Source of the DNA: Eukaryota sp. GEM-RC1
Lineage: Eukaryota
Assembly: GCA_040285855.1 (NCBI GenBank)
Contig: JAUFOQ010000004.1
Span: 992,001 to 1,056,000 of the forward strand
Direction: 5' to 3'
DNA: 64,000 nucleotides
Shown here: positions 9,022 through 63,934 of the stretch, in pieces
Numbering within the stretch: the first letter of the stretch is position 1
Layout: each line of letters starts with the position of its first letter
The notes under the pieces: generated by a model
What the model was told of the DNA's origin: nothing
The model's input: only the letters and a program-made list of their open reading frames with translations
Database searches by the model: none
Made by a program: the position numbers and the translations under genes

Positions 9022-9962
9022 TAGGGTAGAAATGTCAGATAATACGAAGAGTAAAGTCTCTAAATGATCAGCACAATGCAGAGCAGAAGTTCACATGTTT
9101 CTCTATCATATTCTTCTACAATATTCATCATTACGCTGAATATCCGTCCTTTTTGGTTAGTGGATATATCTTGTCTGGGATTTTTGAAAAACAACTGTTT
9201 CTCATCGTTGCCCCTGTTGATTTTGCAGCTCGACTTTATGACATCGAACGCTAGTCCCATTTTCATCGATCAGCAGCATCTGATAGTGGTACTTCTCGAA
9301 TATAGGTACTTCTTTGTGGCCAACATTCTTGTTGGTGCTTGACTGAAAACTGCTTGCTTTCAATCTCTAATCACGTGATTCCCTGGACCTTCAAACCTCT
9401 CTCTGACCTAATCAATCCATCTGGATTCAAACCTTAATCACCAAATACTATATAAAAAGCTTATGAAGAATTCTGCCAACTAGTAATCACATCTTTCATC
9501 AGTTTTCTCGAGTCGTAGAAAGTTACCAAAACCTTCAACGTTTTTGTTTCTGTGCTCACCATTATTGACCAGTTGAGAAACATATCTCGTTTGATCACCG
9601 CATTCTTCCTAAACATCGTCAATGTGAAGTTCAATTCATGATTGTGACGAATATCTCCTTCCCAATGAGAAATCTTCCAACTGAGGTCATAATAGTTAGT
9701 CTTTTAAGTTTGGATATTTGATTAGTGTTACGATAATCCTCACCTATCACCGTATTATATCACTATCACGTGATCACTGTAGTTATAGACCTTCAAAACT
9801 TCTTTTTGAACAAAATTTCATCAATACTTCTCAAAACATACTTCTTTTGCCACGTGTCGTTATAGCCTAAGTATCTTAGTACGACTCTTGTTTAGATAAC
9901 ATTTTTTATTCGATTCAACTTTTTTTAATAGTTCTAATCAGTAGCGAAAGAAAGTTTCACTA

Positions 9963-11564
9963 CAGTCAAACCTCTATAATTTCTCCCCCTCTATAATTTC
10001 TCGGTCCCAAACATCCTGAACTTTGGGATGACTTGTGACTATGTTTACCACGACATTGTGTATCCATATACATCATAGAGTCACAGTGAAAGTTTTGTTT
10101 GATCACTTTTTTCTCAAAATAAACATCGCGTACAACTGTTGTATCAGCTTCAACATATGACATCCTCATCGTGTGTGTAGCTTTGTCACAAACAACCGAT
10201 AACATCGAATCTTCAGCCAACCTTAGTCAACTATGTCTTCTATATCCTTCATGACATCATTGTGTAATGCTCAAGTACATGTAGTGTTTTGTTTCGTTAT
10301 ACATGACCCTTATACATAAATTTTGTCAACATAGATTTTGCCTGCATCATTCATCTCTATCATATGACCAAAAACAGCTCTTTATCTCTTCAGCAGAAGA
10401 GATCACTTTGCTTTTATTCTGCTCAAGAACCAAACCCTACTACTTATCAACTGATTCAATGGGTACTTGACACCTATGGCTTCAAACTACATCGAACAAC
10501 TGTTGGAAAGATTCTCAAATCCTGTGATCACTTACGTGACGATTCTCTTTTCTCTTCAAGTGGTGTTAGAAAGCGTATCAGACCAGTGAAATTTCCAGCG
10601 TTTGACGCTTCTTTATACGAATGGTTTATGACATTTCAAGACCGAATTGTGACTGATGCTGTTATTCTTGACAAAGCAACAACATTTCGCATCAGTTTTA
10701 ACATTTCTGATGAAGAACTGAAATTAACCAACGGCTGGTTGGAGAAATTTAAGAAAAGATACAATATTCAATCCTTAAGAATAAGCGGAGAAGCGGCTTC
10801 TGCTGATAAGACAGGAGTTTTAGATGATTCAGAAGTAGGACAAAGTAGATTCATAAATAGATTTATTGTATAAAACTATCTAGTGTTGCACGAAACGTTT
10901 CGGCGTTTCCAACGTTTCCGTTTCCGAGACGTTTCAGAAACGTTAATGACTCACAGGAAACGCATCCAAAACGTGAATAAACGTTTCCAAAACTTGATGA
11001 TTCCCGTAAATTTGTTGAAAAGTATGTTCCGTTTATTGAACTTTAATACTCTTTATATGAATGTTACCAATAAAATTGGATGCACAGTAGCACACCTCTA
11101 AAACGAAAACACTTACAGGCATAACTGTAGTTTGTGATCCAATTTTCTCTCTCAATTTCATAACATTGAGAAGTACAATCCATAACAACATGTATAACAC
11201 CTGCACGTACAACAAAGAACTGATAAAAATCAATTATACCAGTTAAACGGAATTTTTTCGAAGACAGAATGTTGGTGGAGAAAAATTGAGATGTAGAACC
11301 ATAAAATGACGTTTCGGAAACGGAAACGCGATTCCGAAACGTAAACGCGTTTCCACAAGAATTTTCACACGTTTCGTGCAACACTAAAACTATCTGTGTT
11401 GGGCATGTAGGAAAAGCTATTGCTGATGAAGAAGAAACACAGTTACTGATGGAAGGCTTTGTGATGGAAGAGCGAAAACACGTCCAACAAGCGTGTTTTT
11501 CCATAATTTCTCACCCTCTATAATTCCTCGGTCCCAAAGGTGAGAAATTATAGAGGTTTGACTG
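9963..11564 (+). mobile_element. pogo/Tigger deletion derivative
   Basis: TIRs CAGTCAAACCTCTATAATTTCTC / GAGAAATTATAGAGGTTTGACTG flanked by TA; ORF 10364-10873 encodes CENP-B-type HTH (GWLEKFKKRYNI...GEAASAD); no DDE domain seen. Confidence 0.9.
10881..11386. mobile_element. hAT-type MITE nested in the Tigger element
   Basis: TIR TAGTGTTGCACGAAACG / CGTTTCGTGCAACACTA; perfect 8-bp TSD AAACTATC. Confidence 0.92.
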
Positions 11565-12314
11565 TACTAAGAATTCACAATTACCCAACTCCAACAGTTC
11601 TAAATCTGATATTCTACTATTAGATAGATATATGAGATGTGCTATCAGGCTTTGTTCGACTATCAATCATTAGTGATTTGAAATCACAAATGAAATTTCA
11701 TTTAATGCTACTGAGATAAAAACACTAATCTTCTTCTTCTTGGGCATCAGCATTTAGAATATAGTATTGGAATACTGCACTGGGATGTTACTAAATACTT
11801 CGACAAAATCATGAAATTTGTCCTTTAAGTATTGAGAGCTGTTTTGTGGGCTATATCAATATCTGTCAACGCTTTTTCAACCCTACTGGATTTGGAACCC
11901 AATGCAATCGACCTTCAGTTTCTGGACGGTACATGTGTTTTATTGATACCTAGTGTTCTGTATTTTTCCAATGATGATTGGTATTTTTCCTGTTTTTGTA
12001 ACAAAATCTTCAAAAGTTTCGATATCACTGGACTTGTATACCAATTCCAATATACAAAGATTTCCCATTGAAATAAGAAAATGGTACCACCTATTTAGAC
12101 TGGAAAAAGACTCATTGTATTCCATATCATCTCGGATCGTATTAACAGTGAAGTCGTTCTTAATTGATTTGAAAATCAAATGGCTGGGCATATGATTTTT
12201 GGTATTGGTATATATTACCGTTGAAAAATGTTTGAGATCATGTTGGCAATGGTCATTTAGTTCTTCGACATATCGTAAGAAGATCGTAAGTGGACTTAAA
12301 TGTATGGATACGAT

Positions 12315-13290: not shown

Positions 13291-14274
13291 AGTAGGGCTA
13301 TAAAAAATAATATAAATATAAATAAATTATTGCACTCTGAACAAAGTTAAATGTATAATTGCCGTATTTTAGTACACTAGAACAAATAATTACATTGATT
13401 TTAATGATTTTTATTGTTTCACACGTCGTGACCTGTAGGTATATAAGTAGTTAAACAGTGTTAAGTTTGTAATGAACATAACACATTTTCTTTCAAGCCA
13501 AATTCAGTAATAATTTCTTCCACATCATCGGCAATGTTGTTTATAATATGAAAATACTTTAATTAACCTAACACTAGCCCTTACCTAATACTAGCCACAA
13601 AATGATAGGCTAGTAAGGTTTTTTCTGGGTCCAGTATTAGGATAATTAGAGTAAATAAAATAGAACAAAACACATACAGTACAAATGGAAAACACCTAGA
13701 CTCAATACTCTAGAAAGATTATGATTGTTTTTGTCTAGCTAGCTTGTTTCTGTTGTAAAATTGAAGTTAGAGTTGTGTCTGCAAATGGGAGATGGGAGTT
13801 TTTGGGAGTTCCCAACTCCCAAAAAAGAGCTCCCACTCCCACTCCCAAGAGTTGCTACTAAGGCCTCTCCCACTCCCAGGGGCCGTGGGAGATGGGAGTA
13901 GGATGAGAGGTAGGAGAAATTGAAAGTCCTTATTCTACTACTTGAACTATTCTTTTGTACGTTTTTGAAAGACTTGAATCGGTACTCAACAAAGTCAGCC
14001 TCCAACAAAAATCAAGACTTAGTCTTGGTTTGGTGTGAAGGCTTATGTTGAAAACGTAATATTTTACTGGATGGAATGAAGTCGCTTGGATTTAGTATTA
14101 TTTATTTGTTTTTACAATTTCATGTTTGTTTAGAAAGGTACCAACTCAACAAATGATTGTACTGAAAAAAGATGATTAAATTCACGTTACATGGGCGATA
14201 AAAAATGATAGAATCAAGAGTTACAAAACGTCATCGTCGCTAAAAAGCGAAACGATGACGATCCTCCTCATCAT

Positions 14275-15486
14275 CTACAACAACCGATCCCACAGATGTC
14301 CAGACACGGATGAAACCTTGATGATGGCACCTTCAAATTGAGTGTCATCAAAGTAAAAGGCATCATTGTAATTATCCTTGGAGTTGAATGCTACACGCCA
14401 AGAGTTATTAAATCCATCATGAACAATATAATCAGCTTCAAAGAACTCTTTAAGAGAACTTTCAGATGTATTAGAAGGAATTCCAGTGATTGCTACAACA
14501 TATGGAAAATCAGAAGGTGTAGAGATATTTGACTGATCCTCAAGAGGAGGTTTCTTTTCACGAATTGGAGTAACGCAATCAACTCCCACGTCATCAGCAA
14601 CTGATTCAGTAATAGAGCTCACTGACGTGGAATCAACAGAAAGAGCAGTCAGTCGATCAGAAGTTGTTGAGTAGAGTGACAAGAGGTCTTCATGTAAGGA
14701 AGTAAGAACAGAGGTTTGTTGTTTGATAGAGTTAGTAATACAAGAAACCAACGCATCTGTAATTGTTGGTTTAAAAACAACAGGTTTTCCTAGTTTTAAA
14801 TTATTCATAATGGTCGCTGAATCTAACATGGTAGAATCCAATAGACATGTTAGATTCTCCTTCATTTGAGTACATCCTTCAACAACTTTTTCCACAGTTG
14901 ACTGGGTGGATTGAGAAACCTTGTCTATTGCAACTGCTAACTCCTGATTGATAGAGTTGATGTTTTGTTCAATGGAGGCTCTGCCTTGATCAAACGGTAA
15001 TAACTTCTTCTTGTGTTGGTCGTGGTCACCTAGAAAAGCACAAGTAGAGCAGAGAGCAACAGAACAAGAGGTACAGAAGAGATCAAAGGACTTCATTGGA
15101 TGGGAGGGACATTTAGGAACTAAAGAAGCGTGTTTCTTTTCCAAGGGGATAGCTACATGGGATCGGAAGACTTTCAAGGAATGAACGGTCTTGAAGCATT
15201 TATCACACAAGTCAATGTTACATTCAGCACAAAAGCTTGTTGCAGTTGCCTCTTCACATTCACTACAGACAGATTGGTGTTGACCAGCTAGAAAGGCTTC
15301 CACAGCTTCCTTGAGCTTGTAGTTGGTGCATAACCGGGACTTATCAACTTCAGCTCTGCAGACAGGACAGTCTTTGTGAGATTTAAGCCACTCCAAAAGA
15401 TGAGACATACAAAAGGTGTGACCACACCAGGTTGTTACGGGATTTTGAAGAAGTTCTAGGCAAATATCACAGAGGTAGTGGGACAT
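14275..15486 (-). CDS. TRIM-like RING/B-box/B-box/coiled-coil protein with RRM-like C-terminus
   Basis: CDIC..CGHTFC..CPVC RING, B-box1 (CSEC..CAEC..CDKC..H..H), B-box2 (CPSH..CTSC..CSTC..H..H), coiled coil, C-terminal VAITGIP..LKEFF..VAF. Confidence 0.85.
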   Translation of the reverse strand: MSHYLCDICLELLQNPVTTWCGHTFCMSHLLEWLKSHKDCPVCRAEVDKSRLCTNYKLKEAVEAFLAGQHQSVCSECEEATATSFCAECNIDLCDKCFKTVHSLKVFRSHVAIPLEKKHASLVPKCPSHPMKSFDLFCTSCSVALCSTCAFLGDHDQHKKKLLPFDQGRASIEQNINSINQELAVAIDKVSQSTQSTVEKVVEGCTQMKENLTCLLDSTMLDSATIMNNLKLGKPVVFKPTITDALVSCITNSIKQQTSVLTSLHEDLLSLYSTTSDRLTALSVDSTSVSSITESVADDVGVDCVTPIREKKPPLEDQSNISTPSDFPYVVAITGIPSNTSESSLKEFFEADYIVHDGFNNSWRVAFNSKDNYNDAFYFDDTQFEGAIIKVSSVSGHLWDRLL

Positions 15487-15505
15487 GTTGAAGGTAATGC
15501 GGAAT

Positions 15506-18809: not shown

Positions 18810-21800
18810 TTACTCCATGGATAACCGTTTTGGTCTTCGCATAAGATATAAAACATCATGCAAATGATTTCCAATGTAAACGTCATCATGATGAAGTGTT
18901 TCAAGACGACTCTTAAGTAAATTCAAGGGATTATTAGTCACACTTCCCAAAACTCCATCAACTGACCCCCATCCATCGTCATCAATCCACCCACGTTCTC
19001 TTGCTGCTTCCTGCTCCAAAGTTCTAGGTCTAGGGAAAAGCCCAAAAAAGGAGCAGAAAGATTCACCAGCAAGAGTAGAGCTGAAATACCACGAACCCAG
19101 ATACCAGTTAAAAACTGGGCAATCAGAGAAGAGATCATTAGGTCCACAGAAAGGAAAGATTACTTGGGTCTGTGATACAACTCTAGAAACAACAGAACAC
19201 AATCCAAATGAATCAAATGCCTTTTGGACATCAAGTTTACTACTGGTAAGCATTGAGTTAGCCTCAAAAGGAGATACAAAGACAACTCCACTTGGCTGGA
19301 CAACAACCCAAGATGGTCTTCTTGAATAATCACGAGGACAATTCTTTTTGATATAGGCAAACTCTTTAGTACAAAAGATTGGAATGCCGTTAGTATAAGA
19401 GAATGGTATAAATTCATTAGAATCAAACTCTCTGTTAATCAAAGCCTCTACAGAGGAAGTAAAGAGAGGTTTGTGGGGTTTAGCAGGGTCAGGTCTTTGG
19501 ACAGAGGATTCTTCCTGTAGTTCTTCTTCTAATTCTTTCTCTTGTTCCTCTTCAATGTTACTATTGACGAGGACTTTATACTTGGAGAGAGTTCTCGTCA
19601 TGAAAGAGTGAACGTCAGCATTTGAGCTGATTGTTGACTTCTCAAGAAGTTTTGAAGGAGGAAAAGGAAGGATTTCAGCGTGGTAGAGCTCAGATAAGGT
19701 CTGAGCATCCGCTTCAGGAAGGTCATTAAACCACGTGATACCTTCCCTGGTCCATGTTTTGAGTGAGCGTTCGACATAACTACGAGAGTTCTCCAAACAC
19801 CAATCCAAAATATTTAAAAATTCTACTGATGGGGGTTGTAAATACGTGATACAATGCTTCTCAGGAGACTTCATCAGCAACTTCCTCATCCTCATAGATC
19901 CTTGGGCTATCTTGTCCCTTGTAAAGGGTCAAGGCTGCCCTTATCCTAGGAGGAAACTTGAGGTCAACACCTCTGCAGTGGAAATCATCAAGGTAAACGA
20001 GGCATTTGTCCATTTGTTCAACATATATTGAATCATGGAAGTTGAGACTAACGTCACCATTAGAAGCCATGAGTTTATCATTGTCGAAGTAAAGAACTGC
20101 AGAGATATTAGAATTAGGGTGATGTTGTTTGTAGTTTGAAAGCCATTCAGAAGCAAACTCTTTGTTTTGAAGCATACATACAGCCCCAACGTCTAAAAAG
20201 AACTGTAAACGAAGGGTTCTCAATCAAAACTTTGAGCAAATCCCCATCATATTTTAAAATTTGTTGTTCTAAAATAGCCACATTCATGTTCTTGTTGGTA
20301 TCTTCTACAAATTGTAAAATCCTGCTGAGTAGTTGGAAAAGGCAGCAACCGCTGAGAGCCATTTGTCCCACTGAATCCAACAACAGGCTTTAAACCTCCA
20401 GGATTAGCTAAGTCCCAAGGGGAAGTACTTCTCTTGGTGGGAAACTGTTTAGTGTAGGTAGGGAAGCATTTTAAATTTAAGTAGAAATCAATAACTCGTG
20501 GGTCATTGCCTAATTGAAGATATAATCGTTGGATAGACTCGTCATCCTCAAACACAAGATTATCGAATTCAAATTGTCCATAAGTCCAAATAGAAAGCAA
20601 GTGCTCGTGATTAGGATGGAGGGAGTTTAGAACAGTAAAAAACTCGTGAGAGTCGAGACCAGTCTGATGCCACGTAAGCAAGGTCAAAAGATGGCGAGAT
20701 CCACGTCAGAAAACTCTGAAGCTAAAGCAGGTACGTCCTTTGCTCTAAAAGGAACTGCTAAAAGAGACTTCCTCTTGACATCTCTGCCGTAATTGACTCT
20801 GTACCGAAGCTTTAAAGCTCTTTCAAGTACAGAATAATAGAAATAACCACGAAGAATCAAGGCAACACTGCAAACTCTATTATTGAAGAGAGAATTATCA
20901 TGAGTAATTCCCAAAGCGTAGTCTATAATTAAAGACTTGAGACTGGGCTTAAGATCTAAACTATCTTGGTCTTCTAGTGAGGTACTACCATCAAGAATGT
21001 AGGTCAAAATATGACGTTTTCGCTGAGAAAAGTCCAGCTCATGTTCAAAAGGAAACTCAAAGAAATGTTTCATTGATTGTAATATAGCTTCCCCAATAAC
21101 CCATCTAAGTCTACCCCCGTCTAGTACCTTGGGTTGGCCATAGGGATAAATAAGTTGACTTCTTGGGTCAAGAATCTCATCAGACTCATCAAGAATATCA
21201 TTAACGTTTTCAAGAGAAACTGAAGCAAGATCATCAGAGTTTTTGGTTTTTAACGTGAATGATTGTCGGTATTCTGCGGTAGTAATCAACAAATCAGAAT
21301 TGAAAATGATTGATTGGTAGTGATCAGCATCATCATAGATAGATCGTTTACAGACAAATCGACCCAATCGAAGTCCAAGACATGAGAACAAGGTTTGATA
21401 CTTATTTAGACAAGTTTTATACAACGGTTTCAGAATGTTAATTCGTGGTACAACACCACTTGAGTCAGATAATGTTCCAAGGCAAATTAAAGGAATGATA
21501 ACGCTAGTTTTACCTTCACCCATGAACAATTGAGTTTGAATACTGGTTTTGGAATGAAGTAGATGGTTTGCAATCTTGAATTGTTGAGTTCTAATAGTAA
21601 AACCGAGAATTCTAGCTAACGAAGTGGCTAATTGATCATAACAACTGGACGGTTTTAACTTGAGCAAGGACCATGTATGTAGAACCAGTAAGTTCCATGG
21701 ATGACGTGTTCTGATGGTAGTTGAAGGGAAAACAGAAGGAGAAGAAGATGAAGACGAAGTTAAATGTGTAAAATTAACAGAAAAACTCGGTCGTCCTAAT

Positions 21801-24800
21801 GTTGATTTAATTTGATTGAGACTTCTTTTAACTGTTTGATAGATCTCCATGATGTGATCTTCAGTGCTTCTATAACGGTGGTTATAAGGAACGTCACAAC
21901 TGTAACTATAGCTATTTCTACCATACAAGTACTCAAACCTGTCACTCAATATACCATCAGGAATATAAGGAAGAGAATGATTCTGAGAAGGGTTCCAACC
22001 AGAAGGAGGTGAAGTCTTGGAGGATATAACCAAGTAGTACAGAATGTTGGCTAATGAAGGCGACGTAGGTCTACCTTTAAGTTGATCAGTTAGAAGTTGA
22101 AGGTACAATGCATACTTGAGAATGGAAAGTTTGTCATCGTCCATTTCGAACAATAAGTCACAGAAATTTAAAAATGCTGAAGAATAAAACATTGTGGTAT
22201 TCCAATTAAAAGAGTCAATTACTGACTCTATAGCAGACTGACGTTCTGGAGAAAGTAAATGAATACCACGAAATGTAGAATAACACTGCATATCTGGAAA
22301 CTTCATGGCAAAAGTACGTGATTTCTCAGTAAAAGAGACACGTGTCACTATCGTGGGTTGACCAATATCCTTCAGAATACGATCACCTAGTTCAGGTAGA
22401 AGATGCATTGAGGTCAGGAAAGCTTTGTAATGGAGAAATGAGGACTGATTGTCGTCAAGAGATGTACCATTAACCTTGTACATTGAACTTACCACCAACC
22501 AGTAAATGTCAGAAGAAGTTACTGAAGTTAGACCTGCTGGCCATTGAATTTGTTCCATAATTTGTTTTTCAGGAGGATAATAAGTCCTTGAAGGAGACAG
22601 ACCCGCAATATTTTGGAGTACACCCAAGGTTTTACTTGAAAAGACTGGGTGGGAAAAGAATGAGAAATTAACAAATAAAATGCCACTTGAAATCCTTTTA
22701 AGCTTATATTAAACATTCCATACAAAAGAGTAAGGTACAGCCAGGCCAATTGATCACTATTTGAAGTGAACATATTTAAATCATTGGACCAAGAGTACCT
22801 GTAATAAGGCAAAGACTGACTTGTAGGTATTGTAATAGTTCTATTTTGGACTTCTCCAAAGGGCACGAGCATTTGGAAAGTAGTGGCAGTGGAAAGGAAT
22901 AATGATTGAGGAATGTATAAATCATTGCAGGGAGACGTAGCTTCTACAACCATATTGAGCGTTCTACAGACAAGTTGATTTTGGTCGATTACGAAGTCCA
23001 AGTTATAACGGTAGAGATTGATAAGCTTTACTTCAAGGTCATTACCACACGTGATTATGATCTGATTACTACTCTCAATAAAAAAGAACTGCACAAGACA
23101 CTGTAATAAAGGACAACTTGTTGGTAAAACGATGTCATTCTCCACAGTCCTCACAACTCCTTCACTAGTCCAAATGAACTCAGTAGAATCAGGATCCAAC
23201 ACAGTCCTTCTAATTTCCAAGAGGTTTTCTCTGGATAACCAGTGGTACATTGAGGAAAGAAGAGAAGGTAAGTGATTGAGCTTGTTGGAGCAAATGTAAC
23301 ACCATTTGCGATTGGTTGTAGGACATTTTTGAAAGACTTTGACATTGGTGGTGGTTTTTGTTGGCGTATTAGATCGGCTATAACGTGATGGCGAAGGAGC
23401 TGCTTGAATAGATTTTTGAACATGAAACTCATAAATAAATCCGTTCAAAGACTCAACAGTTCTATAACCATAAGGAGTAGCAATAATTGACGGATTGTAG
23501 TCTGAGCCAAACAAAATTTCAAATACTGACCAGTTTCTAATCGAAAGAGGAAGGTGAGTTGCCGTCTTCCTATTGATTAAAAACTCACCAGATCGACGAT
23601 TGAACTCAACTCTATAATTCACGTCATCAATCATGATATCAGTATAATACCACGAGTCAGACCGGTTCCATCCAACCCCAGAACAATCAAACTTGGCAGC
23701 TTCGAAAACAAATTCATCAAGTACTTCTTTAGAAAACTCAAATGAAGAAAGAGCCTTCATAGCCCTATAAACAGCTGCAGTCTCTTTAACTGAAACATTC
23801 TCCAAGGAGTAGTGGTAAATACTATGAAGGAGGGAGGTGGTAACGATGGGTTCCTTGTACCATCGCTTGTGAGCACGGATGTGCAAGACTGAGATGGAGA
23901 AGAGGAAGTCTGAAGAACAACAGGACTTCCAGTCGTGGAGAATCTCTCTAATGACGTCATAGGTTTGATTGATGACGGGAGAATCGTGTAATTCAGAGAG
24001 TTTGTCCAAGACAATCAAACATGATTCTAAGTTTCGATAATGATCCCATTTATCACGATAGGTGTTAGCAAATGATTGAATAGCTTTACAAATCTTCTCC
24101 ACGTAAAAAAGTCCTTCGAAGTTCAGGAATTTGATCTGAATACATCTCCCAACAAACACATTCCAATAACCTGATTGTACTTGGAGAAGAGAATTCTAAC
24201 TCAGCTGTTATAAACAAAGATAACAGATTACCAAGAGAAATACGAAGTCCAGTGCGGAGACTTCCAAAGGCTTCAAACTTTTTCAGGGAAAGTTCATGTG
24301 GGCAATCACTGAAACTACTCAAAACTCTGTTCTGAGTGTGACCAAATCCCAATGCAAAGGTGAGAGATTTATAAGGAAACTCAAGGGAAGTTCTGATCTT
24401 TGAGGGTAGCCTAGCTTCACCAAACCCTTTACTAAACTCCACACCACTGCTGTGAAGTTCTACAGTCTTCCCACACTTAACAAAGAACAGATCCATTGGA
24501 CAGTCGATATGTTCATCACGAAGCCTGGTTCCACCTGTAGCGATTGCTGATGAAGCTAAGTAAATGTTAGAGGAATTTGAAGTAGAAGTACGAGGACATG
24601 ACCATTTACGAGTAGAACTTCCGCCTATCTGGATTTCATGAGCAGAACGTAAATTGAATACTGCGTCATATAGATTAGAGATTTGGGTAGGGATATTGAA
24701 GTCAAACATGAGACTGAAACGGAGGGTGGAACAAGTTGGTAATAAATTTTCAAATTTTGAATGTCGTCGATTTCTTATGGTAGATCCTAGTTTACACTTA

Positions 24801-26282
24801 TCGCACTTTACCTTATAACTTTTGTAGTTATTTCGCCACGTAGCTTCAGTGTAAAAACAAGAACAATTCATATTCCTAAATTCTTTCTCGTCGCTTTGTT
24901 GGACAGACTTGAAAAGTTCAACACTAGCTCTGTGTCGTCCTCGAGCTTGGTCTTCTTGTAAAAGTATTTGCTCAAGACGATCAACCAAGGCTTGAGTTGC
25001 CTTAGCCGTTACTACTTGAAAGGAATTAGGTGAAGTAGCATCGAATAAGCTAGTAACTTTACCCTCAGTGATAGTCAAATTGGTGAGAAACTCAAACAAG
25101 GACCAAAATTCTTCAGAATCCTTCTTTTCAACGAATTGAAGGTACTTTAAGGACTCTAAATGAGGAAATTCTATCCAATAAGAAGAAATCAAAGGAAACT
25201 GAGTAGCAGCAACTTCATAAACACCCCTAAAACTCCTTAACATTGACAGAACTATTTGACTATAATGGTAGGGATCACTGATAGCCTTGACATTGGAAAG
25301 ACACTGCTTCATTGTCAAAGCAGGATCTGGTGCACGGTCTCTTGGAATCTCAAACTCTAGAGAAGATCTAGAAATACCTTCAAAAACAGGTGGTATATTC
25401 CAGGAAACAACGGGGTTAGCCAATGGAAGTGTCAAAAGAGAAGGGAAATGACGTGGAGCAACGTCAACATTGAACCAATCCTCATTCACTTCCACGTTGA
25501 TCCCTTCTTTCTTTAAATGTCCATAAGCTTGGATTAAATCACTATTGGACAATGCTCGATCGTCAACAAAGTAATTCTCTAACAAATAGAGTTGGAAAGG
25601 AGGTAACCAGGAATTACTACCAAGAATGTAGTCAATGGCTTGAAAGAAGGCAATGAAAGCCCCAGGTCTTCTGTAGCAAAACTGATTGGGTGTGTAGATC
25701 ACGTGATCCCTGACACGTGTTGTTGATGACGTGTCAATTACTTTTCCCGGCAGATGTCCAATGAACATGTTGATGAAGAACTCAACATTGGGGGCTTCCC
25801 GGGTTTCAGATTGGTAAGAACCACCTTTACGTGTCACTTGAGACACAGCATCTACTGAGGAGTGTTTCATCTTGTGGACTACTTCCCACCACTTTTTCAA
25901 AACCATCTCGATCCACGTGAGATACGTGGAAGGGAGATGGAATTTCAGTGGTATGGGAAGCTGTAACGTCCCTGTTAGGAAGGGACGCAAAGAAGAAGGA
26001 AAGTTGGTATTGGGAAGAGGGTAGAGCAGTGAGGTGAAAAACAACGTTGTAATGAGGTAGATGAACCACGACATGTTGGTGATCATCAAGTGCATCAAAT
26101 AGATCGACCTCAGCGATTGTGTCATCAAGTATCATAAAGAGACATTTCTTCTCAATTAATGGGTTGTATGAGTTGAGAATGGCAGCAATTTCAACTTCAC
26201 ACTCTAGTGCAAGACCCGGAGCGGTATTAGGGGGATCTGGTGGATCAGCGGGAAGAAAAACTCCCGCAAAGAGTTGCCGCAT
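18810..26282 (-). CDS. Giant (~2480 aa) DUF6606/DUF3638/DUF3645 P-loop protein, frameshifted
   Basis: GVFLPADPP N-terminus, QLFMGEGKTSVIIPL, DILDESDEIL, RYRVNYG...LAVPFRAKDVPALASEFSDVD, GFSGTN, LDVGA, YLDDFHCRGVDLK, MRMRKL, EEEQEKELEEE in colinear order; about 7 frame breaks. Confidence 0.8.
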
Positions 26283-34004: not shown

Positions 34005-37000
34005 ATGACAGAGCTCACTGTTGAGCAGTCTCTATTTGATGTTTCTGCAGATCAGGTAGCCTCTGTTTGCGATATTCCCTATGAGCTTAAAACCATTGAA
34101 CAGTTTGGTGGTGTATCTGGTCTCCTGTCTTCCTTACGCACTGATCCTGTTGAAGGTCTATCCGCTGAAGAGGAATCGTCTGGATTCGAGGAGCGCCGCC
34201 GTCATTTTGGACGCAATGTTCTTCCCGAGCCACCCTTCCGCTCCTTCTGGAGTTTCTTCAAGGAAGCCATGAATGACACTACACTAAAAATTCTTATGGG
34301 TGCTGCTATCGTCTCCTTCATCCTCGGCATCGCCACCGAAGGCCTTGCTGAAGGCTGGATTGAAGGCACTGCTATCCTCATCGCCGTTCTCTTAGTTGGT
34401 GTTGTCACTGCTACTAACGACTACAAAAAACAACTACAATTCCTCTCCCTATCCAAAAAACAACAAGAAAAAAGACATCAAAGTCATTAGAGGTGGTCAT
34501 GTCAAAAACATCCCCATCGAAGACGCCGTTGTAGGAGACCTCGTCAAGTTTGAAATTGGCGACATCCTTGCAACAGACGGTGTCCTCGTCAAAACTCAGG
34601 ACGTGAAGTGCGATGAATCCGCCATGACTGGAGAGTCTGATGAAATCAAGAAGTCTCTAGTCAAAGATCCTTTCCTTATCTCTGGATGTCCTATCACTTC
34701 CGGAGCTGGTCAAATGGTCGTCACTGCCGTTGGTGTTCGATCTCAATCTGGTAAGATGTCCATGGCTATCCAGGAACAACTTGCTGAGAATGAGAAGACT
34801 CCTTTGGAATCTAAGCTCGAATACTTGGCGGTTTTGATTGGTAAAGGTGGTTTGTTCTTCGCTGTGCTTACGATGGTCATACTTATCGTGAGATATTCCA
34901 TGGACTGGCCCTCCGAACATGATATTTTTGAGCATTTGAATGAATTCACTCACGTTTTCATTGTTGGTGTTACCATCATCGTTGTTGCTGTTCCTGAAGG
35001 TCTTCCCCTTGCTGTTACAATCTCCTTAGCCTATTCCATGCGTAAGATGTTGTCTGATAACAATCTTGTTCGTAAGTTAGCTTCCTGTGAGACTATGGGT
35101 GGAGCTACCACTATTTGCTCTGATAAGACTGGTACGCTTACTAGAAACGTCATGACTGTCATGAAGCTCTATACTAACGAAACAATGCTCATTGCTAAGG
35201 ACAATGGTGACTTTGAAGACTTGTCTGCTATTAAGAATCACCCTGAATTGATGAGCTCTTTAGTCGAGAATATTCAATTGAATTCGACTGCTGATTTGAC
35301 TATGGAAGACGGTGTCGTCAGAGTTACTGGAAGTAAAACTGAAGGTGCCTTGATGACGTTTGCACAACAAATTGACAACAACGACTACGCTGTTGTTCGG
35401 AACAACTCTAACATTGTTAAATTCTGGCCTTTTAACTCCGCTGCTAAACGAATGGATACCATTATTAAGAGAACTGATGGCCGCATCGTCTTGTTAACCA
35501 AGGGAGCTTCTGAAATACTCGTAGAACAATGCAAGTCTGTCATTTTGAATAACGAAGTTGTTGAAATCACTCCTACAATGAGATCTTCTATTGAGAGACA
35601 AATCTTAGAAATGGCCAAGAAAGGTCTTCGTACCATTTGCATGGCTGTATCTTACGACTTGGATCAAAACGAAGAAGCTCTTGAAAACCTAGAGTCTGTC
35701 CCTGACTCCACTTTAACTCTTGTGGCTATTTCTGGTATCAAAGATCCTGTTAGACCTGAAGTTCCTAATGCTGTTGCTCAGTGCAAGAAGGCTGGTATTG
35801 TAGTTAGAATGTTAACTGGTGATAACATTGAGACTGCACGGTTTATTGCTAGAGAGTGTGGAATTCTAACTGATGGAGGTAACTCTCTTACTGGTACAGA
35901 GCTAAGAAATCTCACTAATGAAGAGTTTGACCAAAAACTGCCAAACCTACAAGTGGTTGCCCGTTGTTCTCCTGGTGATAAGCTCCGCATTGTCCAACGC
36001 CTTCGCCATTTGGGTGAAGTTGTTGCTGTTACTGGTGATGGTAGTAACGATGCTCCAGCTCTAACAGCTGCTGATGTTGGATTTGCCATGGGTATTGCAG
36101 GTACAGACATTGCTAAAGAAGCTTGCGACATTGTTCTTCTTGATGATAACTTCAGAAGTATTGTTTCTGCCTGCATGTGGGGCCGTAACGTTTACGATTC
36201 AATCAGAAAGTTCCTTCAATTCCAACTGACTGTTAACATTGTTGCTATCGCTGTGGCTGTCCTTGGTGCCACTGCCATGGGTAACTCTCCTCTCCACGCT
36301 GTCCAGTTGTTGTGGGTTAACCTTATCATGGATACCTTCGCTGCCTTGGCTCTAGCTACTGAACAACCAACTGCCGATCTTCTTGATCGAAAGCCTTATG
36401 GTCGTAATGATTCGCTTATTGCTCCAACAATGTGGAGAAACATCCTCGGTATCTCCTTCGTTCAGATTGCAATCCTGTTGTACATTTTCTTTGCTGAATC
36501 TGCTCATGAGATGTTAGATGTCATTGGTCACGATGGTAGAGTGTCCGCCCATTACACTATTATTTTCAATGCCTTCGTCTTTATGCAGTTGTTCAATGAA
36601 GTGAACTCAAGACGTGTTTACAATGAACTCAACGTGTTTTCTGGACTTTTCTCCAATTATATCTTTTTGGCAATTTTGATCTTCACTATCATTGTTCAGT
36701 GGATGATGGTTCAACTTTTAGGAACTTTCTCTGAGTCTGTTCCTTTGAATTTCACTCAATGGATGTACTGCATTGGTATCGGTGCTATTATGCTCCCTGT
36801 TGGCTTCTTTATTCGTCTGGTTAAGTTCCCCACTGTTAGCCATGGTAAGAAGTCTGGACTTGAAGTTTATGAAGATTTTTCAAAACCATTGGTTGAAATT
36901 GGAGATGATTCACCTTCTCTTGCAACTTTGAGATGGCGTAAAGCTTTCCAGAGTGTACGAACTCAAAACACTGTCATTAGACAATGGAAGAATGTTTCTA

Positions 37001-44946: not shown

Positions 44947-46502
44947 TTAAAAACAAATTCTACAAAGTGATCGTTGGGTTTGGTTGTCGATTGAGTTTTC
45001 ATCTAAACTGACCATAGAAATTGATGAATTAACCTTCAAAGCCTCTGCAATTGATACAGCACCATCGTTTCCAATAGAGTTGTAACCAAGATCGATCGTG
45101 GCCACTGACGTTGACACTTTTATAACCTCTGCAATTGCTATTGCACCGACATTTCCGATAGAATTCTCACCTAAATTAAGCCTAACAACAGATGAATTGA
45201 TTTTTAATGCATCTACAAGCGCTGAGGCACCTTCATCTCCTATGCTGTTCTTCCATAGGTAAATCGTAGAAACAGACGAATTGACTTTTAACGCCTCTGC
45301 GATTGCTATGGCACCTTCATCTCCAATAGAGTTGTTCCATAGATTTATATTAGTAACAGACGAATTGACTTTTAACGCTTCTGCAATTGCTATGGCACCT
45401 TCGTCTCCAATAGAGTATCCACCTATATTGACTTTCGAAACCTCGTTTTGGATCATTTGATCATAGAAATTCTTCAACTCTAAACTCAGTTCAGACCAAT
45501 TAATAGAAGCTTTCTTGTCCTCAACAGCTTCCTCAAAACAAGATTCACTTTCAACAGATTTGACTGTTGGAGTAACGCAATCAACTCCCACGTCATCAGC
45601 AACTGATTCAGTAATAGAGCTCACTGACGTGGAATCAACAGAAAGAGCTGTCAGTCGATCAGAAGTTGTTGAGTAGAGTGACAAAAGGTCTTCATGTAAG
45701 GAAGTAAGAACAGAGGTTTGTTGTTGGATAGAGTTAGTAATACAAGAAACCAACGTGTCTGTAATTGTTGGTTTAAAAACAACAGGTTTTCCAAGTTTGA
45801 AATCATTCATAATGGTAGTTGAATCTAACATGGTAGAATCCAATAGACATGTTAGATTCTCTTTCATTTGAGTACATCCATCAACAACTTTTTCCACAGT
45901 TGACTGGGTGGATTGAGAAACCTTTTCTATTGCAACTGCTAACTCCTGATTGATAGAGTTGATATTTTGTTCAATGGAGGCTCTGCCTTGATCAAACGGT
46001 AATAACTTCTTCTTGTGTTGGTCGTGGTCACCAAGCATGACACAAGTAGAGCAGAGAGCAACAGAACAAGAAGTACAAAAAAAGCTCGAAAGGTTTCAAA
46101 GGATGACAGGGACATTTGGGAACTAACACCGAATGTTTCTTGTCTAAAGGGATGGGTTGATGAGATCGAAAAAGCTTTATGCGATGAATTGCTGTGAAGC
46201 AATCGATGCATAAATCGGCTTCACATTCAGCACAATAGCATGTTTCAAGAATTGATGAATGCAGCATCTTCACACTCATTGCAAACAGATTGGCGTTGAT
46301 CAGTTACAAGGGCTTCCACAGTTTTTTTGAGCTTGTAGTTTGTGCAAAGTTTGGATTTGTCTATAACAACTTCGCAGATGGGACACACACTGTGAGATTG
46401 TAACCACTCTGAAATATGCGGCAAGCAGAAAGAATGACCACAGAAGGTTGTGACGGGATTTTGAAGTGTTTCTGAGCAAATGTTACAAGTAGGGTTGATC
46501 AT
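44947..46502 (-). pseudogene. TRIM-like RING/B-box/coiled-coil protein with C-terminal RI-like LRRs
   Basis: Paralogue of 14275-15486; about five IGDEGAIAIAEALKVNSS repeats; frame breaks near 46250 (about 13-nt insertion) and 46080 (T7 run). Confidence 0.8.
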
Positions 46503-48388: not shown

Positions 48389-48606
48389 GTTGAGAATCTG
48401 TATTCTTACAATAGCAACTGTGGTGGCATATAACTTCTTCATCCGATACTCTATAACTGCCAAAGAGACGTTGCTGCAACATCAGTAACCTTCCTAATGA
48501 ATTAGGAAAACAGTTTGAATCCTTTTGCCATATTTGTTTGATTCCAACGTTTCCGTTAAACCCTGTGCAATAATTCATATTCATTGTTTCAGATAAACCC
48601 TTTGCA

Positions 48607-49422
48607 ATGACTTTGTCTCCTTACGACCTCCTTCTCAATTCTTGTTGTGACAGCATTGATAATGATATAGATGATGCACTTAACTGTATTGAGAAACTAT
48701 GTCAAGAGCCACAACTTCATGCAGCTGCAAAGAAATATGCTTTGTTCCTGCACGCCGACTGTCTCCGTGAGATATGGGTCGGCGAGGAGCATCTTCCTGA
48801 TACTGTTGAAACTACAGAGTTTGTAGATTCCATCATTGAAGAAGCACCGTTACCCAAACCGAAATGGTGCACGGAAGATCAGTTTCAATCTCTGTACAAT
48901 CTCTGTTCTGCTTGCGAATTCACTTCCACTCTTAATTCAGGCCATCTTGATCTAGATACTGTTTTGAAGATACATTCATTGATTGGTAAAGATTTGATCC
49001 AAGGTGCAGGTACTATTCGTACTATTGATGTTATGCCTTTTCAGTCGGCAAATATGTATCTGACTCATCACGAAGTTCCTAAAAGACTTTCCCAGCTGCT
49101 TCAGTGGGTCATTATGAGAATGAAATCAATTAGTGATGACGTGTCTTCTGCTGTAAGGGTAACCACTGTGTTTTTTGCTCACTTTTTGCAAATTCATCCA
49201 TTTGTTGATGGTAATGGTCGTACTGCACAACTTCTTGTTACTGTTTTAATGGGTAAATTAGTACCAACTCCTTTTTCTGTTGTTTCACCAAAACTTCACC
49301 CAAAACTGGTCAATGAATTGGAACATTCTCAAATGTTTAATCGGTTTAGCGGTCTTGCTAGTATTATTGTGAGTTCAATACTGACCTATTGTTCAAATCT
49401 CAAGTGGATTGACGGTTACTGA
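48607..49422 (+). CDS. Fic-domain protein
   Basis: Intact 271-aa ORF; LKIHSLI..AGTIRTIDV and HPFVDGNGRTAQ. Confidence 0.92.
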   Translation: MTLSPYDLLLNSCCDSIDNDIDDALNCIEKLCQEPQLHAAAKKYALFLHADCLREIWVGEEHLPDTVETTEFVDSIIEEAPLPKPKWCTEDQFQSLYNLCSACEFTSTLNSGHLDLDTVLKIHSLIGKDLIQGAGTIRTIDVMPFQSANMYLTHHEVPKRLSQLLQWVIMRMKSISDDVSSAVRVTTVFFAHFLQIHPFVDGNGRTAQLLVTVLMGKLVPTPFSVVSPKLHPKLVNELEHSQMFNRFSGLASIIVSSILTYCSNLKWIDGY

Positions 49423-59190: not shown

Positions 59191-60027
59191 CAGGGACTGT
59201 CAAAAATATATTGCACTTTTGCAATAATTACAATCTTGTGTATTGTGTATTGCAATACTGTATTGCAGCCTCAATTTGTATGGCAATATATTGCAATAAT
59301 TTCGGTTTTGAACAATACTTTTAGACCAATGTTTTTCTATTACTTGAAAGTTCTTTAGCAACATACTACACCAGTGTTTGGTTTGTGTACAATTGGAAGT
59401 CCATACTACTAGTAGTATCTGTCTAGTTCTGACTAGTAAATGTAAACCGAATAACATTCCTCACATAATCTTACACGACTCTTCCTTCTAGACCTGTTCG
59501 AAAACAGATGGCAAAAGCCTACTATTCAACTATCTCCCGGAACTCAACTCAATCAATGTAATTCTGTGATAGCAAATGACGTGAGTAGTGATGATGATGA
59601 TGATGATGAAGAAGTTGTTGAACGCCCTGGACCTGTTTCCTCTGTTCAAGATGTCTTAACTTGAATGACAAAATTCAATTAAATTCCTTCCCAGCAACAT
59701 GAAAATTGTTGTGAAACGACTGTTCAGTAGAGCTCGAATGGTGCAAGGGTTGTCAAAACACTACTTATCTAATCGAAGACTTGCCAATCAACTATATCTC
59801 TCTGTAAATAGAGAGTTGTGGGATATTAGTTTGGTTCGTTCGTAAGACTGTTAATCAGAAACTGCTCAACTTAGAAATCACCTAATGATGTTCTTATGGT
59901 TTATCGGTGGATTTTAGACAATAAATGATCTCATCAACAATATTTATATTGCTACCAATTATTGCAATACTGTATTGCAAATCTTTTGACCCTGCAATAT
60001 ATTGCAATATATTTTTGACAGTCCCTG
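59191..60027. mobile_element. hAT-type MITE
   Basis: TIR CAGGGACTGTCAAAAATATATTGCA / TGCAATATATTTTTGACAGTCCCTG; TSD CCATAAAC/CCGTAAAA. Confidence 0.85.
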
Positions 60028-60084: not shown

Positions 60085-60485
60085 TGGTTGCACGAAACGT
60101 TAATTTCTTTGAGGAAACACATCCGAAACGTCAGTAAACGTTTCCAAAACTTGATACTTACTGTTAATGTGTTGAAAAGTCTATATCACTTGTTGTTCTT
60201 TAATGATCGGTCTTTATATGAATGTCATTAATAAAATTGTGTGCAAAGTTTCAAACAGTTAAAACCAAAACTCTTACCAGTATAACTTTGTTTGTGAACT
60301 ATTTTTCTCTCTCAATGTCATTTCATTGGGGAATGGAGTCCCATAACAACATGTATAGCACCTGAATACACTGGAAAGAACTCATAAAATTCAAACATAT
60401 CTGTTTACAATATATTTTGGAAGAGATAAGGGAGGTGGCAGAAGATTGAGATGTAGAACAACAAAATGACGATTCGGAAACGGAC
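60085..60485. repeat. Diverged, truncated copy of the 10881-11386 MITE
   Basis: Colinear similarity (GTTGCACGAAACGTT..AAACGTTTCCAAAACTTGAT..ATTGAGATGTAGAAC..CGGAAACGG). Confidence 0.8.
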
Positions 60486-60759
60486 AACATTGAAGTTGCT
60501 CTTAAATCTGCATGTAACGATGTCTTCTTTCACTTTTATTGCTACACATAATAACCATAAGGTTATTACAAGAACACCAAATGTATTAAGTTACCTGCGG
60601 TCGCCCTGATTTTTCTTTTCCTTGTTCTTTTCTTTCTTTGAATCATCTTCTAACTGTTCTATCTTATTCCTAAATTTTGGTTTTACAATATATTCATCTT
60701 TACTGCCATTTCAATCATATTCTTGCCATCCTTTCAAAATCGATCTCACAGTCAACGGC

Positions 60760-60783
60760 GACATCGAACCTAATCCAGGACCT
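60760..60783 (+). other. 2A-like StopGo (ribosome skipping) motif
   Basis: GAC ATC GAA CCT AAT CCA GGA CCT = DIEPNPGP, preceded by DLTVNG; exact match to D(V/I)ExNPG|P. Confidence 0.85.
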
Positions 60784-63022
60784 CCAAAACATTTGAAAGA
60801 AAAAAGAAAAAATTAACCAATGCAACAGGATATCACGCTTTCGTCTATTTTGGTGCTGGTGAAAGATATTATTGGATTAAGTGGGAATACCCCATAACTT
60901 TCAAAAAGACTTATAACGGTATTGCTCAATCCAGGTTTGCAAATAAGAAGGAACGTCCTCAAGCTGTCTCTTGGGTAATGAAAATTCTTGCAAGATATGA
61001 ACCGACAATTGATTTGCAAAATCCTGATTGGGAAGATTTTATTAAGAAGTTTGGAGAATCACCTCCACCTGATCACGATTCTCTTTCCCGCCAATATTCA
61101 ATTGTAGGATCTCGAGATCCATTAGTTAGAATGGACAGATATGTTCAACGAAAGATTGTTCCCTTTTGGTCCGAAGTGACACCTGAGAGCTTACCTGAAA
61201 GTATGAAAATCGAGTTAAATTCATTTTTTAAATCAAAGGGCAGCTTGTCTTTCTTTTGTTTTTGGTCAAAACTTTTGCAGAAGAAGAACAACTCAAAGTC
61301 GACGCTTAAAAGAAGTGATAAAAAGACCACAATCAGTTGTTTTTTCGTTCCAAAATGTTTACAAAATGTTTACTTGGTGCTGACTACAATCAGAACAGAA
61401 ATAATACAGGTGAAACCCAAATTGAGGAATTCAAAATATCTAAAAGCAGGAAAATTGAACTCCTGCATCAAGTGTGTCCACCTGATTCTTATGCTGAAGA
61501 CTCGATCAAACTTATTCTCGATGAAGTAACAGCTACTTGCTGCCTTGGCTTGAAAAACCTGAACAAACAAGATTTCTTGATGTGTTATTCTTTACAACCA
61601 TCTGTTGAACATGAACTGGGATTTATGACCAATCTTCGAATTATTCTTGCTGATCGAGTAAAAAATCCCTCTGGCCGAAACAACATTGATGAGTATTCAA
61701 CTTTCTTAAATTCAGTTGATAATCTTCCAATGTATGAACTGAAAGTTGATCCCGATTTTAAAACAATTTTTAGCAACGTTCATCCTTGTGAACATGTTGG
61801 TGCTTCTGATGTTTTCGTGATTGGATCAAAAGCTGATCTACCCAATCAAAATCGCAATTTTAACTTTGATATTGTCGAAAAATTCCATCGATTGAAGAAG
61901 ACAACTCCTTGGTCAAAGATGTCTGTCTTCACAAAGAATCCAATTTGTCCCCTTACAGTATTGTTTGCAGTAAAAATTGGATCAGGCAGCCACTTTTGTC
62001 AGATTTCAGCCATGGTAGATTTTGAAATACCATTACGTGTCAGATATCAGTTAGGAATTTAGATAGTAATAGAAGTTTGAACATTGCAGGTAAAATTAAA
62101 CTTCTGTGGGAAACTAACGACCATGTTGAAGAATTGTTTAGAGATAGATATTATATTGATGTTCTCTTCCCACCGTCTTTTATTGAAAACAAAAGTGTTT
62201 ATTGACCCTGGAAAAACAGATTTACTCTATTTTTGTTCAGAGAAAGTAAATAGGCCATTTCCCGAAAAAAAAGCACGAGAAAGAAGAGATAAAGAATACG
62301 AGTGGCTAAGATTGACAGAGACAGAATGGTCCAGATGGTCAAGGGTTCATCAAAAGTTTAGAAGGGGAAAGAAAAAAGAATTCATTCTCCAAGATGGAAA
62401 AACAGTTGAACAAGAAGAGTCAACATTATCCAAAGAAAATTCAAAGTCAACCGTGTATGAAACCTTCTATGACTATGTGGGTTCCAAACTTACAGTTATT
62501 GAATCAACATTTGATTACCGCTGTTTGATGATATGGCGCATTCAAAAGTGCAAAGATACGTCCATATTCAAAAAACAGAAAGTAAGTTGTTGAAAAATAT
62601 GACTGCAAAAGGATGGAATAAAGATGACTGTGTATTGATGTTTGGTGACAATGGTAATAAGAGGCAGAACCTAAAACACCTCCGATCAAGTAGAGGTGTT
62701 GGTCGGAGAAAACTTCTTTAAGAGAAATGGTTACAATATTGTTCTTGTAGATGAGAGTTACACATCTTCAAAGTGTCCTACTTGTTGGAGACCAGTCAAA
62801 GTGTTTATGGAAGTTGACAATCTAAGACCCAAAACACAAGAAGAGAAGCCTACGTTGAAGTTACATGCGTTGTTGAGATGTCAATCTGAGAAGTGCAGAG
62901 AAGAATGTGATGACAAAGACAAAGTGTGGAATCGTAACAAGTTAGCATGTATCAACATCAAGACTATTGTGGAGCATCATTTGGAGCGGGGTCTAGGAGT
63001 TAGACCCAGTTATTTGTCATAG
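60781..63022 (+). CDS. Fanzor1-type (TnpB-related) RNA-guided nuclease, frameshifted
   Basis: RuvC-I FIDPGKTDLLY (D at 62204), MFGD, RuvC-II LVDESYTSSKCPTC (E at 62753), zinc finger CPTC..LLRCQSEKC, RuvC-III WNRNKLACINI; about 745 codons across at least 6 frame breaks. Confidence 0.88.
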
Positions 63023-63077
63023 TCATAGCCTTTATTTACTACAGTGAATCTGTAGCATTATTCATCCGGTTGTTGAA

Positions 63078-63934
63078 ATGGATTCCCTAACCTGGATTGA
63101 ATGTGTTCAACCGCTAATCATGGGTATTGTTGACGGTGATGAAGATCTCTCTGCCTTTCTTAAGAAACATCTGCATCATACTCAAGAACTCGCTTTTCTC
63201 CCTCTTTTTCTTTGTCACAGACTTCCCTTCTTTCATTGTAATCGAAAACACTTTCTAGCAATCATTCTTGGTCTTCCTTATCACTATCGTGAAGGTGCGA
63301 CCTTCAGTTTTGCCACTCTTAAGTCCAAGTACAGAGGACTCATACGTTTTTAAAACGATCATTTAATCCATTATATTCAGATGTTCCGTTTGAACTTCGT
63401 GAGAAAATGAAGAAGTTCAACACTCAATCTGTTGATCATTTCCTATCACGAATATCTTATACTGACTCCTTTGGAAATCTATCCGTTGAGATCATATTTC
63501 GATGGTTTTTCCCTAACTTTGATGGTTCTACTCCACAACCCTCACTTGAAGAACTTACCGCAATTAATTATCTACTTAAAAGCATTAAGATGAGGACTGT
63601 ATTCAGTTTGCAAGTCCGTATTGATCGTTTTATTGGTGCTTTTATTTTGCTTTTGAAAGAACCGGTGAACAGAAAGGACGAAGTAGAGAATCAAACTACT
63701 GAAAGTGAACTGTTCAAAAGGTGGGAAGACCTTGTTAATGACCGTAACGGTAGCAGAGAATTGTTTTATGATCAAATTATTAATTTCTTGAATAAATTCG
63801 AGCATGCTATAGTGACCAGGACAGAAGCTTTTTGTTTTATGAAAGAGAGCTATGAATTACTTGTAGAGATTAGAGCTGGTTCAAGTACTTCTCATGGTTC
63901 AGCCACTGGTCTCAGCCAGAATGCTTCAGCTTAG
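63078..63934 (+). CDS. Hypothetical ~285-aa helical protein immediately downstream of Fanzor
   Basis: ORFs 63078-63353 and 63407-63934 join if one T is added in CGTTTTTAAAA near 63350. Confidence 0.55.

Follow-up and report, generated by a model that had tools for sequence, protein, structure and literature searches.

Among eukaryotes, 2A peptides are best known from non-long-terminal-repeat (non-LTR) retrotransposons (PMC3708506; bioRxiv 10.64898/2026.06.17.732966). Fanzor proteins frequently carry nuclear localisation signals (NLSs) at the N-terminus (PMC10530073), and in the Fanzor1 protein SpuFz1 the WED/REC region binds the target-adjacent motif (TAM) and the guide duplex (PMC10432273). 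Both kinds of sequence meet in a stretch of 64,000 nucleotides from Eukaryota sp. GEM-RC1 (assembly GCA_040285855.1, contig JAUFOQ010000004.1, positions 992,001 to 1,056,000 of the forward strand), which is called the window here and in whose coordinates all positions are given. The organism is Skoliomonas sp. GEM-RC, a free-living metamonad (PMC11316075). A preliminary description of the window had read 60520-63022 as a single Fanzor gene, expressed as a polyprotein in which a 2A peptide releases a nuclear protein from a hydrophobic leader. Our analysis leads to another reading, which we hold with good confidence: the locus would be a mosaic, in which a 2A-headed gene of a small family, its 2A likely splitting a leader from the protein behind it, abuts a separate Fanzor1 remnant that is truncated at its 5′ end and internally deleted.

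Results

The 2A motif and its reading frames

The sequence DLTVNGDIEPNPGP at 60742-60783 on the plus strand is the sole NPGP-type match across the six frames of the window. It contains the D[VI]ExNPG/P core of class A 2A (StopGo-like) peptides, and the predicted skip lies between Gly 60778-60780 and Pro 60781-60783. Calculated from the triplet frequencies of the window, only 2.9e-5 matches to D[VI]ExNPGP are expected by chance in the window, and 0.015 in 33.5 Mb. Therefore the motif is not a chance occurrence, and its earlier designation as a canonical 2A is confirmed by the sequence. The ATG at 60520 and the TGA at 60607 in the 2A frame, the TAA at 60771-60773 that opens the frame 60774-61529, and the first ATG of that frame at 60978 are likewise found where the preliminary description had placed them. 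It may be noted that the nine-residue core of the motif has 86 occurrences in the table of Rao et al. 2025 (PMC12338488). A word-based search with the 2A piece against proteins of 120-2000 residues gave no candidate; this search is insensitive, as proteins with that core do exist.

The span 60520-63022 is a chain of frames (60774-61529, 61322-62062, 62024-62203, 62081-62593, 62515-62721 and 62675-63022) and is more than a single gene; the frame changes at least five times along it, and two deletion joints occur. Among these frames a Pfam match was obtained only in the last one, to the TnpB zinc ribbon and below the cut-off.

The 2A-headed gene and its relatives

On the plus strand, the 2A motif is preceded by a Phe/Leu/Ser-rich leader (60520-60741) and followed by a zone of 60784-60813 in which the reading passes from the 2A frame to an open reading frame (ORF) that we call ORF-A (60792-61349). 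The latter has about 186 codons, encodes a domain without a family match that is not Fanzor, and is 30-38% identical to three GEM-RC1 paralogs. These were found by an exhaustive search of 1.84 billion representatives with ORF-A (60774-61526), in which 5 proteins reached E ≤ 1e-3. Three of these come from GEM-RC1, each from a contig of its own (GEMRC1_011370, GEMRC1_004378 and GEMRC1_006907), denoted P0015, P0016 and P0019 in no particular order; the other two, P0017 and P0018, are TPR proteins and were rejected as relatives.

The 2A-like motif stands in frame just ahead of the ORF-A domain in two of the three paralogs. In P0019 a leader of 98 residues, a canonical D-V-E-x-NPGP, a short run of basic residues and the ORF-A domain follow one another in one frame. 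P0015 is built alike, also in one frame, except that NRGP replaces NPGP. P0016 is nearly identical to P0015 and starts inside the domain, too far downstream to show any 2A. The surroundings of the motif up to the skip site align to the 2A frame of the window in both P0015 and P0019 (a score reached by 0 of 1000 shuffles in each case). After the skip site, P0015 aligns to the frame of ORF-A (again 0 of 1000), while the highest-scoring local match of P0019 to that frame (2 of 1000) lies at another place, its homology being known from the other searches. A profile was built from ORF-A and the three paralogs, only the latter contributing to its leader columns; in the 2A frame it matches 60520-60813 (independent E 2.1e-8), and the match then continues in ORF-A. 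Also the distance from the skip-site Pro to the first conserved motif is 44 nucleotides in the window as against 14 codons in P0015.

Since two of the paralogs have the layout in one frame and the profile matches across leader, 2A and ORF-A, fusion of the 2A frame with ORF-A, proposed earlier by addition of one A in CCAAAAC, is right in kind. The exact site and the resulting residue string may differ from those proposed, because four A-runs lie between 60784 and 60813 and any of them may hold the shift; the string obtained at CCAAAAC is one of several, and every choice gives a Lys/Arg-rich linker, this zone being Lys/Arg-rich in either frame. The layout of leader, putative 2A, basic linker and ORF, with the 2A in frame with the ORF in P0015 and P0019, is thus supported as judged from sequence; of the architecture first proposed this part holds, and neither the Fanzor identity of the ORF nor the release of a nuclear RNA-guided protein is supported. 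On the same grounds the 2A motif appears to head a small family of protist genes. It keeps its place and frame across proteins that are 30-36% identical, and its conservation ahead of a domain with no more than 30-38% identity suggests that selection has kept it. In the window the 2A frame is interrupted by the TGA at 60607 and by the frameshift, for which decay and assembly error are both possible.

Of the Phe/Leu-rich, hydrophobic leader described earlier, the composition is borne out, with Ser added, but the hydrophobicity is only mild (best 19-residue hydropathy 1.47, as compared with 2.03 for P0019). The window leader aligns to the 33-residue repeat of P0015 (score reached by 3 of 1000 shuffles), and against the leader of P0019 no alignment signal was seen (530 of 1000). 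A period of 33 residues is present in both paralog leaders, with about six copies in residues 1-200 of P0015 and two in residues 1-60 of P0019; the two repeat units do not align to each other, and only the P0019 leader begins with a signal-like stretch.

ORF-A is followed by ORF-B (61322-62062, plus strand), which has 246 codons and coding-like codon use. From its position, it may continue ORF-A after a second frameshift near 61350. A homology test between the two was not significant (109 of 1000 shuffles). On exact look-up, one of ten window frames was found on record, namely 61355-62059 as the singleton protein P0014. PAS/TraJ-like rows of the ESM Atlas for ORF-B were rejected, as few features are shared and the model has a predicted local distance difference test score (pLDDT) of 0.29.

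The Fanzor1 remnant

The RuvC-I piece of the window is 96% and 93% identical to two GEM-RC1 proteins, P0001 and P0002, from which the set was expanded to 13 Fanzor copies of GEM-RC1 (at least that number). Seven of them reach the N-terminus of the family, six starting there and P0001 extending a further 63 residues upstream. The start of SpuFz1, which is its WED/REC region, is matched by residues 96-290 of P0010 (E 1.3e-5); about 90 residues precede this point in P0010 (1-95), as also in P0003, P0004, P0007 and P0009, and hold no NPG. In none of the 13 copies did we find NPG or E.NP, and the idea that a 2A is conserved upstream of RuvC in other Fanzor copies fails accordingly. With the copies as tblastn queries, the window was matched only from 62038 on, one alignment of P0002 excepted. 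When the N-terminal 310 residues of four copies were compared with the six frames of 60400-62037, none of the 24 scores exceeded its shuffle maximum, and 2 of 100 shuffles scored at least as high as the best of them. A profile built from 10 of the 13 copies matched the locus only at 62035-62181 (profile positions 310-358) and 62177-62590 (530-667). From the profile and alignment results, therefore, the window Fanzor is without its first 310 or so residues and about 175 internal ones. In total about 490 Fanzor codons are missing, most of WED/REC included, which in terms of P0010 are residues 1-310 and roughly 358-531. The frame 60774-61529, earlier taken for the Fanzor N-terminus, matches none of the 13 copies, and the ORF-A search and profile place the 2A segment in a separate gene family and not in a Fanzor gene. 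Neither group matches the profile of the other, and by locus tag the nearest Fanzor copy is 221, 52 and 89 numbers from the three ORF-A paralogs; if tags follow contig order, the paralogs are therefore not neighbours of Fanzor copies.

What is left of the Fanzor lies on the plus strand. The first remnant (62035-62181) corresponds to residues ~311-357 of P0010, with clear identity from about 62060, and its 5′ joint is a deletion or recombination joint. The second (62177-62593) comes after the internal deletion of about 175 codons, corresponds to residues 532-667 and carries the RuvC-I Asp (62204-62206). A short frame between two frameshifts (62554-62721) has no Pfam or PDB match; by position and by its resemblance to Fanzor1 motifs it may be the Fanzor stretch ahead of the RuvC-II Glu. 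The C-terminus (62711-63022) contains the RuvC-II Glu (62753-62755), a four-Cys zinc finger and a RuvC-III Asn (62936-62938). It matches PF07282 (E 2.7e-5, below the cut-off) and NF040570 (E 3.5e-5) and is closest to Fanzor1 structures (Parasitella Fanzor1, E 7.6e-15; SpuFz1, E 2.5e-7). The Asp-Glu-Asp triad is incomplete, the Asp (IDPG) and the Glu (VDE) being kept and the Asn aligning to D606 of SpuFz1. With WED/REC missing and frameshifts present, 62035-63022 is not one intact ORF, and the window Fanzor is a dead remnant.

Some observations concern the Fanzor family as a whole. A stop before the RuvC-II Glu (window 62538-62593) is common to the window and all six annotated copies that reach it (P0001, P0002, P0005, P0006, P0010 and P0013), and the sole codon difference among copies just past the shared shift would be silent in the other frame. 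Three origins are conceivable for this family-wide frameshift, namely a lesion inherited by the copies, an error made systematically in assembling a repeat, or programmed shifting; a programmed -1 frameshift was found unconvincing, with a downstream hairpin of z -1.46. As for an omegaRNA, the region 62990-63180 folds no better than shuffles (z -0.32) and has no Rfam match, the end of the element not being fixed.

Origin of the 2A-headed gene and rival explanations

ORF-A and its paralogs have no Pfam, PHROG, NCBIfam or PDB match beyond weak repeat-driven rows. No apurinic/apyrimidinic endonuclease (APE) follows the 2A, Pfam giving no match for ORF-A, P0015, P0016 or P0019, and no reverse transcriptase was found among the frames of the window. 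A word-based protein search, which is a weak test, gave no relatives of ORF-A of 441-2000 residues. The best ESM Atlas row for ORF-A (0.75, PWWP) was kept as a lead only, and a suspected likeness of the ORF-A start to the hybrid-binding domain of RNase H1 was not supported by Pfam or PDB profiles. Two AlphaFold models of ORF-A have a mean pLDDT of 36 each, and Foldseek with the first of them gave no match. A scan of metagenome contigs found no relative, the matches L002 and L003 being chance as judged from their frames, and phage records held no match for P0019.

We consider a retrotransposon-like mobile element, of which the family would be the 5′ part, the most likely origin, at about even chances. 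The reasons are that its members are dispersed, broken and, in the ORF-A search, confined to GEM-RC1, with leaders that are tandemly repeated, and that non-LTR retrotransposons are the best-known setting of eukaryotic 2As. A host gene family is appreciably less probable, although it deserves attention. More narrowly, we tentatively suggest, as a rather unlikely possibility, that metamonads harbour an undescribed mobile element of polyprotein type with the 2A at its head, composed of tandem-repeat leader, 2A, basic linker and new domain, standing outside the 2A-using clades of long interspersed nuclear elements (LINEs) and possibly derived from a picorna-like virus. An open frame at 1-948 is a candidate for the 3′ end of an element family that could carry the 2A gene; it has no Pfam or PDB match, and its motifs are suggestive of the C-terminal restriction-like endonuclease (RLE) of RLE-type non-LTR retrotransposons. 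The segment 879-997 is repeated at 14028-14139.

A single Fanzor gene across the whole span, with leader-2A-NLS-Fanzor as the expressed form, we regard as hardly tenable. The 2A is real, it is in frame with the following ORF in the paralogs, a basic stretch lies behind it, and N-terminal NLSs are often found in Fanzors (PMC10530073); but ORF-A and ORF-B show no similarity to the Fanzor N-terminus of GEM-RC1, the paralogs of ORF-A are not near Fanzor copies, and in addition to the lost codons the RuvC-III Asp has become Asn. A viral source of the 2A gene, as an endogenised segment of a picorna-like RNA virus in the order 2A, 2B-like, 2C-like, is improbable but not negligible. The only PDB match of ORF-B is coxsackievirus 2C (6s3a), some 260 codons past the 2A, which fits that order, and GD[IV]ExNPGP cores are common among viruses. 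Yet the match has an E of only 0.1 among several queries, no further 2C chain appears at E ≤ 10, no frame ahead of it contains a Walker A motif, and ORF-B has no Pfam match at E ≤ 1, so that the features of a superfamily 3 helicase (2C) are lacking; it is for want of a Walker A and of any other 2C chain that we rate this origin low. The tandem-repeat leaders are not capsid-like, and viral contigs scanned with five queries yielded no relative (a DNA collection, hence a weak test) and a single 17-residue match, L001. It is also conceivable, though unlikely, that the motif is a relic past skipping in an ordinary lineage-specific gene family or in pseudogenes, and that the leader is untranslated T-rich DNA. 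The known members are all short or broken, one has NRGP, the coding score of the window leader is negative in all frames in addition to its TGA, and look-alike peptides mostly do not skip. Against this stand the conservation of the motif in place and frame and the match of the paralog profile to the leader in the same frame from the ATG onward.

The frameshifts themselves allow one more explanation, namely a recent chimera in which all of them are assembly errors and one frame runs through leader, 2A, ORF-A, ORF-B and the Fanzor C-terminal part, with a dead RuvC. Each frame change lies at or beside a homopolymer run, and the GEM-RC assembly was made from Nanopore R9.4 reads with Illumina correction (PMC11316075). 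Ordinary host genes of the window behave similarly, as 6 of 9 junction windows change frame without a candidate intron (by a narrow intron pattern); single-base errors are therefore likely in the assembly. Conserved host genes that change frame at or near homopolymer runs without a candidate intron include those for a P-type ATPase, katanin p60 and a DUF3638 protein, the places of change being 34396-34490, 8385-8401 and, in the DUF3638 gene, within 18810-26131; these point to uncorrected indels, and the two shifts in the 2A gene may be single-base assembly errors as well. For the chimera as a whole, however, five separate one-base errors and both deletion joints in frame are required, along with a start after the TGA at 60607 or its read-through. 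In such A+T-rich DNA any shift of +/-1 has a run nearby. The product would have neither the lobe that binds guide and TAM nor the third catalytic Asp, and no second copy is known. We thus consider the chimera very improbable.

In the mosaic that we prefer, translation would start at the leader ATG, the ribosome is predicted to skip at the Gly-Pro bond, and a Pro-initiated protein with a basic start would be released. Alternatively, less of the downstream protein may be made, an effect that has been proposed for the 2As of retrotransposons. A Fanzor element would have landed in or beside the 2A gene, and a deletion would then have removed its 5′ part. Measurable skipping by the window peptide is possible, although we lean somewhat against it.

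A number of points weigh against our reading. In a screen of 20-mers in human cells (PMC13405545), the first 22 of 29 GDIEPNPGP rows comprise 7 skipping, 4 fall-off and 11 non-skipping peptides, and six look-alikes in that source, in which DL[TC]x precedes the core, divide into one skipping, one fall-off and four non-skipping peptides. Active peptides are Leu-rich at positions -19 to -10, where that of the window has one Leu. Of the motifs seen in two paralogs, the NRGP of P0015 probably has no activity. As the searches gave no reverse transcriptase, endonuclease or transposase for the 2A-headed family, the term mobile element rests on context. The Fanzor copies come from one word-based search, and the comparisons cover annotated proteins, with the DNA upstream of the annotated Met of the Fanzor copies and downstream of the paralogs outside them. 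Lastly, the tblastn alignment of P0002 reaches back to 61912 at 48% identity, for which neither the profile nor the other copies give support.

Surroundings of the locus

Fragments of elements crowd this region. A truncated copy of a hAT-type miniature inverted-repeat transposable element (MITE) at 60085-60484 (plus strand) lies outside the coding frame of the 2A gene; its left terminal repeat is kept (60085-60099, 2 mismatches), and no right end is present downstream within the window. It is 76% identical over 393 nucleotides to 10937-11324, within an intact copy (10881-11386) with terminal inverted repeats and a perfect 8-bp duplication. This intact copy interrupts a Pogo/Tc5-like element with terminal repeats (9961-11566; HTH_Tnp_Tc5). 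An 837-bp element at 59191-60027, probably hAT-like, has perfect 25-bp terminal inverted repeats and a flanking duplication matching at 6 of 8 positions. Past the Fanzor, two overlapping coding-like frames (63048-63934, plus strand) gave no match in Pfam, PHROG or NCBIfam; they may belong to an unrelated gene or be what remains of the interrupted gene. Elsewhere in the window, a Fic/DOC-domain gene occurs at 48574-49422 (E 4.6e-12) in this protist genome, and two RING/B-box paralogs (14275-15504 and 44947-46095) are 84% identical over 921 nucleotides, the second with leucine-rich repeats.

Discussion

The locus gives no evidence that a Fanzor is produced as a 2A polyprotein, and an attractive false lead is thereby removed. 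Literature linking Fanzor to a 2A peptide, ribosome skipping or StopGo was not found, as judged partly by titles and the starts of abstracts, nor was any on StopGo in metamonads; among the papers listed by a broader search none named Skoliomonas, and the word Fanzor is absent from the main texts of four 2A surveys. The window peptide and the organism name are absent from the available supplements of two 2A surveys that include eukaryotic 2A-like peptides outside retrotransposons (PMC12338488; bioRxiv 10.64898/2026.06.17.732966), one of which perhaps gives no accessions. In the searches made, a 2A-headed gene family in a metamonad was thus not found in print. If the peptides skip, the range of StopGo recoding would widen to include an anaerobic lineage that branches deeply, and a protein context other than that of APE-type LINEs. 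Should the tentative view of a new polyprotein-type mobile element in metamonads be correct, no earlier case of StopGo recoding would have been reported from Metamonada. Nature supplies three variants of the peptide for testing, two of them canonical and the third with NRGP. The stop that all copies reaching it have in common makes the sister Fanzor1 family a second small lead.

Among known systems, the 2As of APE-type non-LTR retrotransposons (L1Tc/Ingi, Rex1, Crack, L2 and CR1; PMC3708506) resemble the gene described here in that a eukaryotic ORF opens with a short leader and, after it, a class A motif, and in their dispersed, partly decayed copies, some with mutated motifs. They differ in that here no APE endonuclease or reverse transcriptase lies behind the motif, the downstream domain has no family match and the host is a metamonad. 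With the 2A-like signals of sea-urchin NLR proteins (PMC4981915) the gene shares a hydrophobic N-terminal peptide ending in 2A, where a skip would separate and relocate the protein; in those, however, signal and 2A form one short peptide, whereas the leaders here have 88-218 residues and a 33-residue period. With Fanzor1 (SpuFz1, Parasitella Fanzor1; PMC10432273) the remnant at 62035-63022 has the RuvC-I Asp, the relocated Glu and the four-Cys zinc finger in common, but it differs by its missing WED/REC, internal deletion, frameshifts and change of the RuvC-III Asp to Asn, and a 2A occurs in none of its 13 sister copies.

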